A stretch of DNA of 64,000 bases. It comes from an uncultured Candidatus Saccharibacteria bacterium. GTDB lineage: Bacteria > Patescibacteriota > Minisyncoccia > UBA9983. The stretch is from assembly GCA_964372755.1 (NCBI GenBank), contig CAYJQX010000002.1, positions 74,287 to 138,286 on the forward strand, read 5' to 3'. Position numbers and translations under genes: made by a program. The notes under the pieces were generated by a model. That model searched no databases, was not told the DNA's origin, and saw nothing but the letters and a program-made list of their open reading frames with translations. This document shows, one piece after another, positions 3,278-45,063 of the stretch (positions are counted from its first letter, which is position 1; each line of letters starts with the position of its first letter).

Positions 3278-4852
3278 TATGTAGCGTATGCTCGTAAGTC
3301 GACTGACCAGGAAGAGAAACAAATCACTTCCATTGAAGATCAGTTGCGGGAAATTGAGCGAATAGGTACAGGTTGTCACATCACAAAGAAACTCACGGAG
3401 AAGCGGACTGCTAAAACTCTCGGTCGTCCTGTTTTTGCTGAGATGTTGCAGTTGATACTGGATAAGAAAGTGGATGGGATAGTTTGTTGGAAGCTGAATC
3501 GGTTGGCGAGAAATCCAATAGACGGAGGGCAGATAATCTGGATGTTGCAAAATGGAGTCATCAAAGAAATCAGGACTGATGATGGTATCTATACTCCAGA
3601 GAGTGACATGATAATGCTTCACATCCACTTCGGGATGGCTCACCAGTTTAGTCTGAATCTCAGTAAAGATATCAAGAGAGGGTTGCAGGGTCGTCTTCGT
3701 GAGGGTGTTCGTCCCTCAATTGCCCCCATCGGGTACAAAAACAGCCAGTATCACATCAAACGGATGGAGGAAATCTTGGTTGATGAGGAGCGATTCCCAA
3801 AAGTAAGAAAGGTATTCGAGCTAATGCTTTCTGGGCAATACTCTCCCCTCAAGTTGGTTGAGATTGCGGATAAGCAACTTCATCTGGAGACAAGGGGGAC
3901 GAAGAAATGGCCAAGAAAAGCCATGAGCAAGTCGAATATGTATCGGGTTCTCACATCACCTTTCTACTACGGGGAATTTGAGTTTCCAGAGGGTAGTGGA
4001 AACTGGCATGTCGGGAAACATACACCCATGATTACCAGAGATGAGTATGACAAAATCCAATCTCTTCTTGGTCGTGAGGGTAGACCGAGACCGAAGACTC
4101 ACATCTTTGCGTACACTGGATTGATGCGGTGTGCGGGTTGCGGTGCAAGGATTACAGCTGAAGAAAAATGGAAGCACCAACAAAACGGAAACAGTCACCA
4201 CTACATCTACTATCGGTGTACTGGCAGTCAGGGTCCGGAGTGTACGGAGAAGTCGGTTGAGGTGAAAGTATTGGAGAAACAAATTGATGACTTCCTCTCC
4301 AAGATTCAAATCCCTCCAGAGTTCCATGAGTGGGCTGTTGAGGAGTTGAAGAAGCTCCATGAAAAAGAGAAGGGTGATAGAAACTCCTTGATTCTGAAGC
4401 ATGAACAGGAATACAAGGACTGTGTATTCAAGTTGGATCAGTTGATGGAGCTTCGGTTGGAGGGCAAAGTGTCGGAAGAAATGTTTTCTCAGAAAGAATC
4501 ACAACTCTTGAAGCAGAAGCAGGATTTGAAGCGGTTGATTGATGGAGATGATAAGCGGGTAGATGACTGGTTGGTTCGTCTTGAAAGCACCCTTACCTTT
4601 GCTGAGAGGGCTAGAGAGGAGTTTGCGAAGGGTGATATTGCGAAGAGAAGGCAAATTCTAACTGCTCTGGGTAGTGAGCATATCCTCAAAGACAGGGCAA
4701 TACATATTCAAACGGAAAAACCACTCCTTGTACTTCAAGAAGTGGTTTCCGTGAGCAATCAACTCTTAGATAAGTTAGAACCTCCCAAAAGTGTTGGAAA
4801 CAATGGGCGGATTAAACAAATCTATGCTGAAAGTTCATCAATGTGGACCTGA
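3254..4852 (+). CDS. large serine recombinase (integrase)
   Basis: N-terminal resolvase domain with catalytic Ser (YVAYARKSTDQEE...SIEDQ), a recombinase domain, and a zinc ribbon CAGCGARI...YRC. Length 532 aa. Confidence 0.8.
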   Translation: METKTKLRYVAYARKSTDQEEKQITSIEDQLREIERIGTGCHITKKLTEKRTAKTLGRPVFAEMLQLILDKKVDGIVCWKLNRLARNPIDGGQIIWMLQNGVIKEIRTDDGIYTPESDMIMLHIHFGMAHQFSLNLSKDIKRGLQGRLREGVRPSIAPIGYKNSQYHIKRMEEILVDEERFPKVRKVFELMLSGQYSPLKLVEIADKQLHLETRGTKKWPRKAMSKSNMYRVLTSPFYYGEFEFPEGSGNWHVGKHTPMITRDEYDKIQSLLGREGRPRPKTHIFAYTGLMRCAGCGARITAEEKWKHQQNGNSHHYIYYRCTGSQGPECTEKSVEVKVLEKQIDDFLSKIQIPPEFHEWAVEELKKLHEKEKGDRNSLILKHEQEYKDCVFKLDQLMELRLEGKVSEEMFSQKESQLLKQKQDLKRLIDGDDKRVDDWLVRLESTLTFAERAREEFAKGDIAKRRQILTALGSEHILKDRAIHIQTEKPLLVLQEVVSVSNQLLDKLEPPKSVGNNGRIKQIYAESSSMWT

Positions 4853-4916
4853 GGAGAGTCGAACTCCTGACCTTCGCTTTGCAAAAGCGCTGCTCTACCA
4901 ACTGAGCTACAGGCCC
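4844..4916 (-). tRNA. tRNA-Ala (anticodon UGC)
   Basis: Minus-strand cloverleaf GGGCCTG-TA-GCTCAGTTGGTAGAGC-A-GCGCT-TTTGCAA-AGCGA-AGGTC-AGGAG-TTCGACT-CTCCT-CAGGTCC-A. It shows the G3:U70 Ala identity pair. CCA is not encoded. Confidence 0.85.
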
Positions 4917-37877: not shown

Positions 37878-38342
37878 TTATTTCTTTTCCTCCTTGCCCG
37901 CCACAGCTTCAGCGTCGGCGGGGTGATAGTTAACCATCCACCGAATGCCGAATTTATCCGTACACATACCAAAGTAATCACCCCAAAACTGCATGGCCAT
38001 GGGCATTGTTACCTTGCCTCCTTCGGATAATAAGCCGAACATGCGGTCTGCCTCTTCCTTGCTGTCCGGATGGAGCGACACATGGATTTGCGTGCCCATG
38101 ATCACGGTATTGTCCTGCCCCTCTGGCGCATCGGAGATCATAAGCGTATCGTTGCCGATCTGAAAACCGGCGTGGATAATGCGCTCCCCGCCTGATTCCG
38201 AAAGTTTTGGCATACCCTCTTGCGGAGGCATGTCTTTAAACTTTGAAACAGATGACGGCTCACTCTTAAAAACTTTTTTATACAACTCAATGGCCTGCGC
38301 GGCCGTGCCGGGGAGCGTGAGATATGGGTTGAGTTTTGTCAT
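37878..38342 (-). CDS. VOC superfamily protein, PhnB-like
   Basis: KLNPYLTLPGTAAQAIELYKKVF. Confidence 0.6.
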   Translation of the reverse strand: MTKLNPYLTLPGTAAQAIELYKKVFKSEPSSVSKFKDMPPQEGMPKLSESGGERIIHAGFQIGNDTLMISDAPEGQDNTVIMGTQIHVSLHPDSKEEADRMFGLLSEGGKVTMPMAMQFWGDYFGMCTDKFGIRWMVNYHPADAEAVAGKEEKK

Positions 38343-38409
38343 GGTTCGATTTTACTCACCATGACCCTGAGTGTTAATCGAAGGGTCATATTTTTGTAGT
38401 TAATGTTAT

Positions 38410-38925
38410 TTACTTTTTATTTTCGACGTATTTTTTGAAATTATCCAAAATTGCCTGCCAGCCCTGGCGTTGCATTTCTTCCGAGTTTTCGTTTTCCGGA
38501 TCAAAGGTAGTGGTAATCTGCACGCCCTCCGGTGTTTCTTTTCCGCCAAAGGCGGATCCGCCTTTGGCGGAAAATTCAACTTTCACATGCCGTTTCATTC
38601 CTTTCTCGCCTTTGAGGGACAGAGATTCATCCATATCATACTCAATCAGCTCATTTTCTCGAACTACGATGTAAGTTCCTGTGAAATCAAAGCCCTCCGC
38701 CTGCCCTGAGCCTGCTTGCGGTGAGCCTGTCGAACCAGTCGAAGGGTCTTTCGCTTGCATCCGCGTCTTGAATTTTCCTCCCACGCGCAGGTCATTCTCC
38801 GCGCTTGGTGCCTCCCAATCGTCGGAAGCAAATGCCCAGCCAGTAATGTGCTCCGGCTTGTTCCAACATTCCCACACTTTTGCTATGGGTGCTTTTACAA
38901 CAGTTTGTATGGTAATGGGATTCAT
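38410..38925 (-). CDS. SRPBCC (AHSA1/Aha1-like) domain protein carrying a Gly/Ser/Gln insertion
   Basis: ITIQTVVKAPIAKVWECWNKPEHITGW. The insertion encodes STGSTGSPQAGSGQAEG. Confidence 0.6.
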   Translation of the reverse strand: MNPITIQTVVKAPIAKVWECWNKPEHITGWAFASDDWEAPSAENDLRVGGKFKTRMQAKDPSTGSTGSPQAGSGQAEGFDFTGTYIVVRENELIEYDMDESLSLKGEKGMKRHVKVEFSAKGGSAFGGKETPEGVQITTTFDPENENSEEMQRQGWQAILDNFKKYVENKK

Positions 38926-39003
38926 ATTTTTTAATAAGTTACTATTTCGCCGCGCAACCCTCCTTCGCTTCCACCTTCGCCAAGGCTTCGGCGGACAAGA
39001 AAG

Positions 39004-41385
39004 CTATGGACGGGCACAGTACAGATCATTGATCCGTTTGGTCGTGGTGCGGTAAACGTAGCCCGTGCCTTTTTGGATTGCCCAGGGACCGAGAACAATA
39101 CCGGAATGCTTTTCTTGGAACGCTCGGACAGCGGCATCGGTCGCATCATCAAAGATGCCATTTACCTGCACGCTGGTAAATCCTTCCTGCTCGAGGAGAA
39201 ATGATTGCAGTTTACTTACTTCCACCGGATCGTTATTCGCGCCCTTTCTCATGAACTGGGTGATATGTGCTCGGCAGAAATTTTCGGTGTCCGCGCAAAC
39301 AGTGACATGTTCTTTCACCACAATACGCTTGGGAATGTTTTCAGTTGTGGCCGGATTTGTCCAGAGCGTTATATCTTTTTCCATTTCACCGTCACCCAGA
39401 ATCTGCAGATGTACCACGTACCGCGCGCCAACTTGCGAATCCATTACGGTGGCGATAAACGAGCGGTGGCCTTCGTCATTTACTCGTACCGCTAAATCAT
39501 TAAAATCATTGTCCGTGCCAAGCTCAAAATCATAACGGATCACCGCGTCGGCAATCACCGTCTTTTTTGCTGATTTCGCGCTCGTGAACACCGTGCCATT
39601 CGGGCTTACGACATAGACTTTGTATCCAATCTCGGCTGGAGTATAACAGCTCTCGCTATATGGACTGGAATCAAGCCGACTTAAGATGCCATCCCCATCG
39701 TCCTCATTGTCGGCCACGTCTTTCTTGCCGTCCTTATCCAAGTCGCGGATATTGGATTCTTTGTAATCCGGCAGGGTGTCCTTGTCAGTATCGCCTTTCT
39801 CGTTTTTGGTCAGGATATTATCCCGGTCGTCATCGGTATCCAGATAATCCGGAATGCCGTCGCGGTCGGTATCTATGGGCGAGATGTAATAATATCCGCC
39901 TCCACCTCTCGAAGACCCTGAGCTTGTCGAAGGGCTCCCGCCACTTTCAGTTATGGTTGGCACGGTGTCACCGTCATCATCGCTATCTGCGTTGTTGGTA
40001 AGGCCGTCTTGGTCGCTGTCTACATCGTTTGGCTCCTCAAAATCGGGGATTGAATCGCCGTCCGTGTCGTCATCGAGCACGCTGCCGTCGTTGTTGGTGT
40101 CTTCCTTTTTGGTCGGTATACCGTCCCCATCATCATCCGGATCAAGCGCGTTAGGAATGCCGTCGTTATCAGTATCAACAACAGCTTCATCTACGGCAGT
40201 GTCCGTATCAGAAGTATCGGTAATTACTTCATCAATTGTAGACACTGTATCGCCATCGTCATCGGGGTCGCTTACGTTGGGAGTTCCATCTTTGTCAGTG
40301 TCGGTAGTATTGGGCTCAAGGTAGTTTGGAACGGTATCGCTATCAGTATCGGTCGCTACAGGATCGGTCGAAGCCGTTTCTTCGCCTGCAGTGAGAATCG
40401 CATCGCCGTCATCGTTTGAATCTAAATAGTTTGGCGCGCCGTCGTTATCGGTATCAACCGGCTCTACAGGATTATTCGTAACCGTGCCGTCGTCAATCGT
40501 CGGCACGGTGTCACCGTCATCATCCGGATCGAGGTTATTGGTTGTGCCGTCACCATCCGTGTCGGTCGTGTTCGGCTCAAGATAATCAGGCACGGAGTCC
40601 GCATCCGTATCTACAATGGTCTCCTCCGTGGAAGTAGAAGTTGTTGTGTCTGGAGTAGTCGTAGCTGTTCCGTCTGTTGTCGATGTAGAAGTGGCTTGCC
40701 CTGAGCCTGCTTGCGGTGAATTTATCGAAGGGGTGTTTTCCGTTTCGGTGGGAATACCGTCGCCGTCGTCATCAGGATCGAGGTAGTTAGGGGTGCCGTC
40801 GCCGTCAGTGTCAGGGAGCGGCTCGGGGTCAGTGATGTTAGCTTCAGGACTCGATTCTTCTGTAACCCCAGTACCAATCTCTTCGGTATCCGATACGCCG
40901 TCTCCGTCGGAGTCAGTTGCAATCGGCTCCGTAGCTGTTTCCACTTCGGTGGTAAAGGTATGACTGCAGGAGCTTGCCTTGTTGCCGGCCGGATCAGTCG
41001 CATGAATACAGTAGTGATAAGTGGTATTCGGAGAAAGTCCGGTAAGCATCGCAGTATGGGCAAGAAGTGCTGTCACCGGCAAAGATGCCGACTGGCCGTA
41101 GGCATTGGTAGCACCATATTCGAGAGTAGAAACTGCTGCCTCGTCGGTTGACCAAACAATAGTGACTTCATTTATACCAACAGATGTCACGGCGACGCCA
41201 GAAATAATCGGGGCGGTAGTATCAGCCGGAGCAACTATTTCCTCTGTTGGATCAACTTCAGGCGCCGGTGCAAGTTGCGCTGCTACAGGCGAGACATTAA
41301 AAAAGACGAGGGAAAAGATTGTAAAAATGCTAAAGATTTTTATTGTCATAAATTTATCTTTCCCAAATTTTATCATCGGGAGCAA
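39004..41385 (-). CDS. large secreted surface protein: FN3-like domain, about 8 thrombospondin-type-3-like Ca-binding Asp repeats, C-terminal peptidoglycan-binding domain
   Basis: Signal/TM at the N-terminus. Repeats of D(T/S)DxDGxPN(Y/A)LDPDDDGDG(I/T)P. The C-terminus KLQSFLLEQEGFTSVQVNGIFDDATDAAVRAFQ resembles PG_binding_1. Confidence 0.6.
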   Translation of the reverse strand: MLPMIKFGKDKFMTIKIFSIFTIFSLVFFNVSPVAAQLAPAPEVDPTEEIVAPADTTAPIISGVAVTSVGINEVTIVWSTDEAAVSTLEYGATNAYGQSASLPVTALLAHTAMLTGLSPNTTYHYCIHATDPAGNKASSCSHTFTTEVETATEPIATDSDGDGVSDTEEIGTGVTEESSPEANITDPEPLPDTDGDGTPNYLDPDDDGDGIPTETENTPSINSPQAGSGQATSTSTTDGTATTTPDTTTSTSTEETIVDTDADSVPDYLEPNTTDTDGDGTTNNLDPDDDGDTVPTIDDGTVTNNPVEPVDTDNDGAPNYLDSNDDGDAILTAGEETASTDPVATDTDSDTVPNYLEPNTTDTDKDGTPNVSDPDDDGDTVSTIDEVITDTSDTDTAVDEAVVDTDNDGIPNALDPDDDGDGIPTKKEDTNNDGSVLDDDTDGDSIPDFEEPNDVDSDQDGLTNNADSDDDGDTVPTITESGGSPSTSSGSSRGGGGYYYISPIDTDRDGIPDYLDTDDDRDNILTKNEKGDTDKDTLPDYKESNIRDLDKDGKKDVADNEDDGDGILSRLDSSPYSESCYTPAEIGYKVYVVSPNGTVFTSAKSAKKTVIADAVIRYDFELGTDNDFNDLAVRVNDEGHRSFIATVMDSQVGARYVVHLQILGDGEMEKDITLWTNPATTENIPKRIVVKEHVTVCADTENFCRAHITQFMRKGANNDPVEVSKLQSFLLEQEGFTSVQVNGIFDDATDAAVRAFQEKHSGIVLGPWAIQKGTGYVYRTTTKRINDLYCARP
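39650..40950. repeat. intragenic imperfect tandem repeats encoding the Asp-rich modules
   Basis: Reiterated gatccggatgatgacgg.../ccgtcatcatc... units visible in the sequence. Confidence 0.5.
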
Positions 41386-41743
41386 AATCTACTTGATACT
41401 CTGGTATGCCAAGCGAAATGCCATAGCGTTTTGCTTCGTCATATTGTTCTTTGCTTTTTCGGTCTATGAAAAAAACTTTATCGCGGAAAATAATGTAATG
41501 ATGAGTGTCATTTTTGAAATCAGCATACCAGTTATGCTCGGAATCTAGTGCTTTACTAATTTTTTCCGCAACACTACCAACTTGGTTTTCTGGAATTTCA
41601 ACAGTGTGCAAAGTCCATTGTTTTATCCACGGAGTTTTATGTTCCTCCACGACTTCCTCAACTTTGGTCTCCAAAATTTTAACATCTTTGAGAATGTCTT
41701 TATCTTCTAAACTTTCTTCAATTATTACGCCTTTGTAGTTCAT
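41354..41743 (-). CDS. hypothetical protein
   Basis: 129-aa ORF overlapping the upstream surface-protein gene by 32 nt (operon-like). Confidence 0.3.
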   Translation of the reverse strand: MNYKGVIIEESLEDKDILKDVKILETKVEEVVEEHKTPWIKQWTLHTVEIPENQVGSVAEKISKALDSEHNWYADFKNDTHHYIIFRDKVFFIDRKSKEQYDEAKRYGISLGIPEYQVDFAPDDKIWER

Positions 41744-41819
41744 AGTGTTTATTTTTTCGCAATGGCTTCCATTTTGAGAAGCTTCTTGGCTACTAGCATG
41801 GATTACATAAGATTATTTT

Positions 41820-42530
41820 TTACTTGTCCTGAGCTTGTTGAAGGGTCGCTCGATATTCACGATTAATCCCAAAAACAAGAAATAAAACAGTGCTTCCAAA
41901 AAGGATCCCTGTGACATTTAAAAGAAAGATATACCCGGCTCGAATAGCCAAATCGTTGGCCGGATCAAAGAGGCCGATGCCGGTAGCGACCAGGGGCGGC
42001 ATCAACGATACCGCGATTCCGATTCCGGTCATAGCCGATCCGACTTTTGAGCGGATGAGACCGTAGGCGGCTATCGCGCCGGAGACAACAGCAATAAGAA
42101 GATCGAAGAAAACATTTGGAAAGAAAGAAATAAGCACGCGCTCTGCCGTCTCGAAATTACTCTTTACAAAAAGTGAGAAAAGACCGCCCACTACAATGGC
42201 AAGAACTATGGCGATAACGAGCATAGAAAATGCCCGCAGGAAAAGTTTTCCATCTCCGGCGACAGTGGCAAGGCCCAAAGAAAGAATCGGGTATGCGAGC
42301 GGAGCGACGATCATGCTCGCGATGAGTATCGGAATACTGTCGACCAATATTCCGGAGGCGGCAAGAATGATTGCGCCGATGACCAAAAGATAAAAGTCTC
42401 TGTCTGGGACGGTATTCTCCAGAAGGTCTTTAACCGCTTGCTGTTTGTTATCTTTTAAAAATGACCGTGGAGCGTATATAAATTTCACCCATTCAGTATA
42501 GCATCCCAGTGTCGGTTTTAAAATAAACAC
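41820..42530 (-). CDS. DUF389-like hydrophobic membrane protein
   Basis: Pattern LLVIGAIILAASGILVDSIPILIASMIVAPLAYPI. Confidence 0.4.
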   Translation of the reverse strand: MFILKPTLGCYTEWVKFIYAPRSFLKDNKQQAVKDLLENTVPDRDFYLLVIGAIILAASGILVDSIPILIASMIVAPLAYPILSLGLATVAGDGKLFLRAFSMLVIAIVLAIVVGGLFSLFVKSNFETAERVLISFFPNVFFDLLIAVVSGAIAAYGLIRSKVGSAMTGIGIAVSLMPPLVATGIGLFDPANDLAIRAGYIFLLNVTGILFGSTVLFLVFGINREYRATLQQAQDK

Positions 42531-42556: not shown

Positions 42557-42891
42557 TGGCTCCCGAGGTAGGATTCGAACCTACGACCAACTCGTTACAC
42601 TTATTCCTAATTTTCATTAGGGCGTGGACTATATCATGTTCCGACAATTTTATCGGAACCAAGGCGCTTCCCTATCGACCCCTCAATAAATTTCGGGGTA
42701 AAAAGGTACTCCCATAAAGGGATAGTCTCTACACCTGCCTTTGCTAAAAAATTTAGCAAAAGATTGGCTCGGGATCGTCTCGTCTTATTTAGACAGGGAT
42801 TTCCCCGAATTCACCTTGTTTTTCAATTCGCCTTGCGACGGAAAGCTGCGTAACTTCACAGCGAGCTGCTCTACCGCTGAGCTACTCGGGA
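42557..42891 (-). tRNA. tRNA-Asn (GUU) interrupted by a group I intron; exons 42858-42891 and 42557-42597, CCA encoded
   Basis: 5' exon TCCCGAG-TA-GCTC-AGCGGTA-GAGC-A-GCTCG-CTGT. 3' exon TAA-CGAGT-TGGTC-GTAGG-TTCGAAT-CCTAC-CTCGGGA-G-CCA. Mature anticodon loop CUGUUAA, with the U1:A72 and G73 features typical of Asn. Confidence 0.75.
42598..42857 (-). ncRNA. group I intron (260 nt, no ORF) in the anticodon loop between positions 35 and 36
   Basis: P1: exon GCUGU pairs with the IGS GCAGC, with U.G at the splice site. P10: GUUA pairs with exon UAAC. The intron ends in G. R-like GUAGAGACUA and S-like AUGAUAUAGUCC elements would form P7. P-like AAUUCGGGGAAAUCCC and Q-like GAUCCCGAGCC elements are present. 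Confidence 0.75.
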
Positions 42892-43004
42892 ATATTTATC
42901 TTTTCAAAGAACAATGAAATTATAGCTTAAAACGATTCTTAATCAAGTTAATTTAGTCTATTTAGAGGCCCTTTTTGGGGCTATCCACAACAAGAAAAAA
43001 CTCT

Positions 43005-43788: not shown

Positions 43789-45063
43789 TTAGTAATTTTC
43801 CAGTCTGTGGATTTTTTCGTGGAGGCGGATTTTTTCTATGGCTTTGGCCTCAATCTGGCGAATACGCTCGCGGGTCACGCCAAACTCCTTGCCTACTTCT
43901 TCCAAGGTATAAGTCACCCCGTCGCCCAAACCAAAACGCATTTTTAATATCTTATACTCCTTCGGGGTCAGATCGTTCATAATGTCTTCTATCTGGCTAG
44001 CCAAAAGAGACTGGGCCACCTGTTGGGAAGGCGAGAGAATTTTATCTTCTTTGATAAATTCTCCCAAAGTGGAATCTTCTTCGTCGTCCCCCACCGGAGT
44101 TTCCAAAGATACGGTATCCTGATCTATTTTTTGGATCTGATGAATCTTGTCCACGTCCATATTCATTTCGGTGGCGATTTCCTCCGGCATCGGATCGCGC
44201 CCTAAATCTTGCGTTAACCTTCTGTAAACTCTTTTATATTTGGAAATTGTCTCCACCATATGCACAGGGATGCGGATGGTTTTGGCCTGATCGGCAATAG
44301 CCCGAGTGATGGCTTGGCGAATCCACCAAGTGGCATAAGTGGAAAATTTATAACCCTTGCGCCAATCAAATTTCTCGACCGCGCGAAACAAACCAAAATT
44401 ACCTTCTTGGATTAAATCAAGGATGGTGAGATCGGGGCTTCTCCCCACATATTTTTTACCAATAGAAACAACGAGGCGAAGATTGGCCTTGACCAACAAA
44501 TTTTTGGCTTCTTCATCTCCAAGCTCGATTCTCTTGGCCAGCTCTTTTTCTTGAGCGGCTTTGATAAGAGGATACTTGCCTATTTCCCGAAGATAAGCCT
44601 GCACCGCATCGAGAGATTGCTTATCGAGGTTTATTTCATCATACCGGCTTACAACACCACCTTCCCCTTTCTTCTTGTCTCCAACAACATCCAAAAGCTC
44701 CTTCCCTTCCAATACATCAATACTGGCTTCTTGGAAACGATCGTAAATGTTTTCCAAAAAAAGAATATCTTCCTCGATTCTAGGAAATTCTTTCAGGATT
44801 TCGCTGTAAGTCACAAAGCCTCTGGTTTTCCCTTTTTTCAGCAAAAGCTGGATTTGTTCTTCTAAAATTTCAGCCTTGCTTTTTTTCTTCTCCTTTAAAA
44901 CTTTAACTTTAGGAGGAGGAGATATTTTTTTCTTCGGTTTTAGAATTTTCTTTTTGGCTGAAATTTTTATCTTTCTCTTTGTCTTAAAATTTTTCTTTTT
45001 GACCTTCACTTTTTTGGATTTTAAAATTTTCCCTTTTTTTGTTTTCTTTTTATTTTTTTTCAT
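43789..45063 (-). CDS. rpoD: RNA polymerase sigma-70 factor RpoD with about 60-aa poly-Lys N-terminal extension
   Basis: Region 2 [16 protein letters not shown] and regions 3 and 4 are present. The N-terminus is [24 protein letters not shown]... Confidence 0.85.

Follow-up and report, generated by a model that had tools for sequence, protein, structure and literature searches.

A tRNA-Asn(GUU) gene split at position 35/36 by a 260-nt group I intron on a Patescibacteria contig

The split tRNA-Asn gene and its genomic surroundings

The window, by which we mean the whole 64-kb stretch of DNA analysed here (G+C ~40%), carries on its minus strand a split tRNA-Asn gene at 42891..42557, composed of a 34-nt exon 1 (42891-42858), a 260-nt intron (42857-42598) and a 41-nt exon 2 (42597-42557). 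The initial annotation had given these coordinates and lengths correctly and had left the strand unstated. Exon 1 (UCCCGAG UA GCUC AGCGGUA GAGC A GCUCG CUGU) supplies tRNA positions 1-35, comprising the acceptor 5' strand, the D arm, the anticodon stem 5' strand and the loop nucleotides C32, U33, G34 and U35. Exon 2 (UAA CGAGU UGGUC GUAGG UUCGAAU CCUAC CUCGGGA G CCA, that is, UAACGAG...GGGAGCCA) supplies positions 36-76, comprising U36, A37 and A38, the anticodon stem 3' strand, the variable loop, the T arm, the acceptor 3' strand, G73 and an encoded CCA. The intervening segment starts with GAAGUUACGCAGC and ends with ...AAUAAGUG (full run, GAAGUUACGCAGC ... AGGAAUAAGUG), and was assigned as a group I intron on the basis of its RF00028 score, fold, covariation and an ORF check.

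When the two exons were joined, the resulting 75-mer formed a regular cloverleaf that ARAGORN called as tRNA-Asn(GTT), with U1:A72, G73, the anticodon loop CUGUUAA and CCA, exactly as had been predicted from the exons in the initial annotation. The spliced 75-mer was 93.3% identical, without gaps and over 75/75 nt, to the annotated intron-less tRNA-Asn of Caulobacter phage CcrSC, and all of its annotated top matches were tRNA-Asn. Run with default settings on the 64-kb window, ARAGORN did not call the split gene. The sole other tRNA found in the window by ARAGORN and Rfam was a tRNA-Ala at 4843-4916 (4844-4916 in Rfam), and the earlier remark that only one tRNA-Asn is visible holds within these 64 kb. 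A promoter-like site (TTGATT-16 nt-TATAAT; 42919..42946, minus strand) matched the consensus at 10/12 positions and ended ~28 nt upstream of tRNA position 1; to judge from its motifs, it would be expected to function as a promoter.

The same-strand neighbours of the split gene are rpoC, dnaG and an rpoD-like gene. Named homologues of the window DnaG were labelled Patescibacteria group, Parcubacteria, Paceibacterota and Terrybacteria, and these names place the host as a Parcubacteria/Paceibacteria-like member of Patescibacteria. An NCBI entry identical to this DnaG sits on a contig of 140,085 bp. The closest relative by DnaG (76% identity) was a 6.5-kb contig in which synteny stopped short of the tRNA position; this contig contained no group I match and no tRNA, and it does not bear on whether the relative has the intron. 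Two other reading frames of the window showed features of their own. The RpoD-like sigma factor (43789-45063, minus strand) carries an extremely lysine-rich extension of ~70 residues at its N-terminus, and its translation had no exact match on record. A 793-aa ORF (39004-41385, minus strand) has a signal-like N-terminus and many DTDxDGxPNxLDPDDDGD-type repeats, which look calcium-binding by eye and are unrelated to the tRNA finding; it lies within a rise in G+C at 38000-42000 (47-49% vs ~40% elsewhere).

Published examples and relatives in species-representative genomes

The number of intron-interrupted tRNA types in bacteria was raised from 4 to 21 by exon-based mapping (Williams 2020, bioRxiv 10.1101/2020.01.27.920355). 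Group I introns at position 35/36 of Patescibacteria tRNA-Asn(GUU) were described by Nakagawa, Amikura, Omae and Suzuki (mSystems 2026, PMC13011429; preprint July 2025, bioRxiv 10.1101/2025.07.03.662931), and that paper equates the 'Asn.4Ug' type of the earlier catalogue with these introns. From 95 complete Patescibacteria genomes, the authors recovered 15 tRNA-Asn(GUU) genes with a 35/36 group I intron, which had a mean size of 257 bp, carried HNH genes in some copies, and were assigned to subgroup IA, subgroup-specific covariance models being used for subgroup assignment (PMC13011429). In the same study, 81% of bacterial tRNA introns belonged to subgroup IC, whereas none of the Patescibacteria ones did, and the intron of GCA_016700035.1 self-spliced in vitro precisely at 35/36, with an omega-G-to-C change as the negative control. 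In alignment A2, which combined the window gene with three sequences from Table S3 of that paper, one of them this experimentally spliced copy, all four aligned end to end with 71% mean column identity and identical junctions. The host tRNA-Asn(GUU) and the 35/36 insertion site named in the initial annotation were thus borne out by homologues, for one of which splicing experiments have been published.

Species-representative genomes were scanned with one pattern (GATATAGTC, 15-45 nt, GTAA, 13 nt, GGTTCGAATCC). At least 120 species-level genomes matched, and their titles were almost all those of Patescibacteria MAGs. The matches listed included Parcubacteria, Paceibacterota, Saccharibacteria, Microgenomates, Uhrbacteria, Kaiserbacteria and Doudnabacteria, together with some labelled otherwise by their depositors. 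The pattern leaves out published GAGATAGTCC variants, and the family is therefore larger than the scan shows. All 88 resolvable loci (window counted) contained the same split gene, in which exon 1 ends in CTGT, the intron ends in G and exon 2 starts with TAA; this agreement is partly by construction, since the scan or the extraction itself selected for complementary acceptor and anticodon stems, for an exon ending in CTGT and for the G|TAA junction, and TGT/CTGT was required when locating exon 1 in relatives. A locus was counted as resolvable when it had enough upstream DNA; most of the others were truncated by the end of the locus or of the contig. No intron-less tRNA-Asn was found near the split gene in the 120 loci listed. 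The initial annotation had considered an intron at position 35/36 of tRNA-Asn(GUU) unusual, a view that is out of date given the published class (Williams 2020; PMC13011429) and the breadth of the scan. The observation is real and belongs to an already known class that is common in Patescibacteria, so it is ordinary for such an organism.

The introns fell into two size classes, one of 185-353 nt (62 loci) and one of 519-640 nt (26 loci). Between the window intron and the others listed, only conserved core segments aligned, at ~70-100% identity, and there is accordingly no close relative of the window intron among the 120 matches listed. The longer introns, 26/88 loci, carry a ~300-nt insert, which in many of them sits upstream of the guide sequence, in the P1 loop. 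In most long introns a protein of 100-135 aa with HNH-like motifs is encoded by the insert; of three insert proteins scanned against Pfam, one cleared the cut-off for HNH and the other two scored slightly under it. The insert genes look frame-shifted or truncated in several copies, which suggests decay of the endonuclease gene. Eleven of the loci listed come from MAGs titled 'uncultured Gammaproteobacteria' or 'Bdellovibrionales' that carry the split tRNA-Asn. Such titles probably reflect mislabelling by depositors or pipelines, or errors in binning, and not true occurrences outside Patescibacteria.

Architecture and covariation of the intron

The initial annotation had proposed a search with the Rfam Intron_gpI model. 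This model (RF00028), whose gathering score is 50, matched 42869-42605(-) with 72.8 bits (E 1.5e-16), and the whole model was covered (positions 1-253 of 253). The match is far above chance. It was one of only two gathering-level Rfam matches in the 64 kb, the other being the tRNA-Ala. The minimum free energy of the intron had a z of -3.45 and was more stable than all 200 dinucleotide shuffles, and the centroid fold yielded P2, P3, P4, P5, P6/6a, P7.1, P7.2, P8 and P9. No homing-endonuclease ORF was found in the window intron; its longest ORF has only 41 codons, and we therefore conclude that it carries no homing endonuclease gene.

Alignment A1, made up of the window gene and 54 short relatives, served to count covariation over the pairs of the structure drawn from the window sequence. 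Standard pairs occupied 87.7% of cells, compared to 69.1% in column shuffles and 35-42% when partners were slid by 1-3 columns, and 0/500 shuffles reached the observed paired fraction. The covariation score was 0.421, compared to 0.136 in shuffles, and again 0/500 shuffles reached it. Part of the invariance in the relatives was imposed by the search: GATATAGTC and GGTTCGAATCC stood in the scan pattern, and the invariance of GAUAUAGUC was likewise imposed by it. AGAGACTA and GCAG were invariant though not selected for.

The P1 5' strand (42857..42862, minus strand, as are all elements below) consists of exon GCUGU and intron G+1, and the U at the 5' splice site is U35 (42858). Its 3' strand is the internal guide sequence CGCAGC (42845..42850), in which the G at 42849 pairs with U35. 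P1 was paired in 98.5% of cells, with four pairs invariant and the intron +1 pair covarying (GC 28, CG 11, AU 10). The P1 of GCUGU with GCAGC and a U.G at the splice site, as first proposed, is present, and both this U35.G wobble and the GCAG motif were invariant in 55/55 aligned sequences.

Downstream of P1, the P2 hairpin (CGUC-GCAA-GGCG with a GNRA loop; 42829..42840) was 96.8% paired with compensatory changes at 4/4 pairs. The P3 5' strand CAAGGUG (42812..42818) pairs with the 3' strand CGCCUUG (42660..42666), which was supported by the covariation count; P3 was 90.9% paired with double changes at 4/7 pairs. P4 (UCGGGG/UCCCGA) encloses P5 (GUCU...AGAC) at 42769..42808, and was 99.5-100% paired with compensatory, both-side changes at 5/6 pairs. 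P5 was taken from the centroid fold; it is weak in the window copy and aligned poorly across relatives (58.9% paired in the MAFFT alignment). P6 (GCC/GGU) and P6a, an 11-bp hairpin, together span 42733..42768 and both covary, with 95.2% and 82.5% pairing and both-side changes at 2/3 and 11/11 pairs, respectively.

The catalytic core agreed with the R- and S-like elements AGAGACUA and GAUAUAGUCC that had been proposed to form P7. J6/7 and the P7 5' strand, AGAGACUA (42723..42730), were invariant in 55/55 sequences and absent from the search pattern. J8/7 and the P7 3' strand, GAUAUAGUCC (42626..42635), were read from the sequence and agree with the Rfam consensus; UAGUC pairs with GACUA, and the invariance of GAUAUAGUCC among relatives follows from the search pattern. 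P7 was 100% paired and never varies, with no both-side changes. The P7.1 hairpin (UCCC-UUUAU-GGGA; 42710..42722) was 97.8% paired with double changes at 3/4 pairs. The extended P7.2 hairpin (42670..42706) was only 44.6% paired in the MAFFT alignment, a poor value traced to misaligned length-variable hairpins. P7.2 was instead assigned by per-sequence folding of relatives: the segment between P7.1 and P3' formed a single hairpin in 69/70 relatives with P7.1 (mean z -3.95). The P8 hairpin (42638..42659) was 79.7% paired on the unrefined MAFFT alignment with double changes at 6/7 pairs, and the P9 hairpin (CCUAAU-GAAA-AUUAGG; 42606..42621) was 80.3% paired with double changes at 6/6 pairs. The last intron nucleotide, the omega-G at 42598, is present as the initial annotation had stated. 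It is a G in 88/88 loci, but G was required by the search pattern and only the window's own G counts as an independent observation.

The P10 helix GUUA:UAAC fared less well. A candidate P10 strand GUUA at 42851..42854, complementary to UAAC of exon 2 (42597-42594), is present in the window as had been claimed. Among the 88 relatives, a Watson-Crick P10 of at least 3 bp beside the guide sequence occurred in 19% of loci, compared to 20% of shuffled segments, which is not above chance. P10 was therefore treated as unproven. Many group I introns can do without this helix.

In the Michel and Westhof classification, subgroup IA is marked by two additional hairpins between P7 and P3'. The presence of P7.1 and P7.2 in that position thus indicates a subgroup IA architecture, and the predicted structure supports assignment of the window intron to subgroup IA, in agreement with the IA assignment in PMC13011429. 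A minority form without P7.1 and P7.2 was observed in 8/55 sequences of A1. In these introns, GAUACC follows directly after AGAGACUA, and the P3 and P6 sequences differ (UUUGGGAUAAC...). The 35/36 site is thus shared by two or more structural lineages of the intron.

Predicted splicing, alternative readings and known systems

We conclude, with a probability of roughly 93%, that the locus is a functional Patescibacteria gene for tRNA-Asn(GUU), split at 35/36 by a 260-nt ORF-less IA group I intron. By analogy with the homologue assayed in vitro, the window intron would be expected to self-splice at 35/36. In the mechanism we propose, the promoter-like site at 42946-42919 would probably drive transcription of the split gene, and the intron would fold into P1-P9 with P7.1 and P7.2. 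An exogenous guanosine bound in P7 would attack after U35, held in a U.G wobble with the GCAGC guide; the terminal G (42598) would then occupy the guanosine site, and U35, through its freed 3'-OH, would attack the 3' splice site. Ligation of CUGU to UAA would restore the loop CUGUUAA, and RNase P and 3' trimming would complete the tRNA.

The same DNA can be read as tRNA-Thr(UGU) with an intron at 33/34, with boundaries 2 nt upstream, GUGAAG...AAUAAG removed and the loop CUUGUAA. When intron search is switched on, ARAGORN reports just this, tRNA-Thr(TGT) with a 33/34 intron, because the dinucleotides GU (5' junction) and UG (3' junction) permit a 2-nt slide. The intron of the Thr reading is likewise 260 nt long and likewise ends in G. 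The 5' splice site of group I introns follows the U of a U.G wobble, whereas the Thr reading puts the splice after U33, which pairs with A in P1; it is U35 whose wobble is conserved. U1:A72 and G73 were found in all 88 resolvable loci, whereas the one ordinary tRNA-Thr(UGU) in the fetched loci has G1:C72 and U73. The 35/36 junction yields the ungapped match at 93% identity to an annotated intron-less tRNA-Asn. Nakagawa et al. (PMC13011429) document the same Thr(UGU) mis-annotation by ARAGORN and tFind, and sequencing of the in vitro product of a homologue showed them the 35/36 junction. With U33 paired to A, U1:A72, G73 and best matches to tRNA-Asn, the Thr reading is effectively refuted. In spliced reads, the junction CUGUUAAC would correspond to Asn at 35/36 and CUUGUAAC to the Thr reading.

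Two further explanations accept the Asn identity and dispute the state of the gene or of its intron. The split gene might be a decaying or redundant copy whose intron no longer splices, with an intron-less tRNA-Asn elsewhere doing the decoding. The window is 64 kb of a larger genome, the P5 of this copy is weak and P10 is not conserved, all of which leave some room for such decay. However, every stem of the tRNA is intact, CCA is encoded, the core motifs GCAG, AGAGACUA, GAUAUAGUCC and omega-G agree with the family consensus, and a good promoter-like site lies upstream; in the complete published Patescibacteria genomes with this intron, moreover, standard tools find no other tRNA-Asn (PMC13011429). 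We consider such a decaying or redundant copy extremely unlikely. Recent invasion by an active mobile element through endonuclease-mediated homing would fit the 26/88 loci whose insert mostly encodes an HNH-like protein, but the window copy has no ORF above 41 codons and no near-identical intron occurred among the 120 loci listed. Occupation of one site across many Patescibacteria classes fits long vertical retention with repeated loss of the endonuclease gene, and recent homing is accordingly very unlikely here. The preferred reading thus remains a functional tRNA-Asn(GUU) gene with an ORF-less intron.

The split gene may be the sole tRNA-Asn of the genome, and it is plausible that all Asn decoding depends on splicing. 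Were it the sole tRNA-Asn, GTP-dependent self-splicing might further gate the supply of tRNA-Asn and link nucleotide or energy status to translation at the RNA level. We regard this proposal as unlikely; Nakagawa et al. (PMC13011429) raised a regulatory role of this kind as speculation only. A practical consequence concerns annotation. Default ARAGORN misses the gene and its intron search mis-names it tRNA-Thr, so that the genome would seem to be without tRNA-Asn and would score as less complete; a completeness estimate based on tRNA counts would wrongly give tRNA-Asn as absent from this MAG.

The window copy shares with the Patescibacteria tRNA-Asn 35/36 introns of PMC13011429 the host tRNA, the anticodon, the site, the CUGU|...G|UAA boundaries, the U.G/GCAG P1, the AGAGACUA and GAUAUAGUCC core, P7.1 and P7.2 (IA), the size class, the phylum and even the ARAGORN mis-call as Thr(UGU) at 33/34. 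It has a weak P5 and a P7.2 that exceeds in length that of most relatives, and nothing in it differs in kind. It lies on a contig of an incomplete MAG, whereas the published set was drawn from the 95 complete genomes. It adds one more case to the published pattern in which genome-reduced Patescibacteria retain a self-splicing ribozyme in an essential tRNA gene. The scan, which found at least 120 loci with a strict search pattern, suggests that such genes occur more often than the 15 cases reported from 95 complete genomes would imply, and thus adds to the extent of the phenomenon, not its kind.

Other kinds of tRNA intron fit the locus less well. The archaeal or eukaryal tRNA intron is short and lies at 37/38, in a bulge-helix-bulge motif cleaved by a splicing endonuclease, whereas the 260-nt insert here sits at 35/36 in a bacterial host and has the complete core of a group I ribozyme. 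The classical bacterial tRNA group I introns belong to subgroup IC3 and include those of cyanobacterial and plastid tRNA-Leu(UAA) at 34/35 and of tRNA-fMet at 33/34; the tRNA introns of Azoarcus and Agrobacterium were reportedly described by Reinhold-Hurek and Shub in 1992. [quoted passage not shown] It differs from them in host tRNA and site, and is IA with P7.1 and P7.2 where the classical ones are IC. An IC-type tRNA intron (Leu(UAA) 34/35, fMet 33/34 or Arg 36/37, with a core without P7.1/P7.2) does not describe a locus with tRNA-Asn, position 35/36 and both extra hairpins. The group I introns with LAGLIDADG endonucleases in the rRNA of Patescibacteria (CPR) share the phylum and the ribozyme class with the window intron, and both contribute to the large number of introns in these reduced genomes. 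The CPR rRNA introns are hosted by rRNA and are often long and ORF-bearing, whereas the ORF-bearing relatives of the window intron encode HNH-type proteins.
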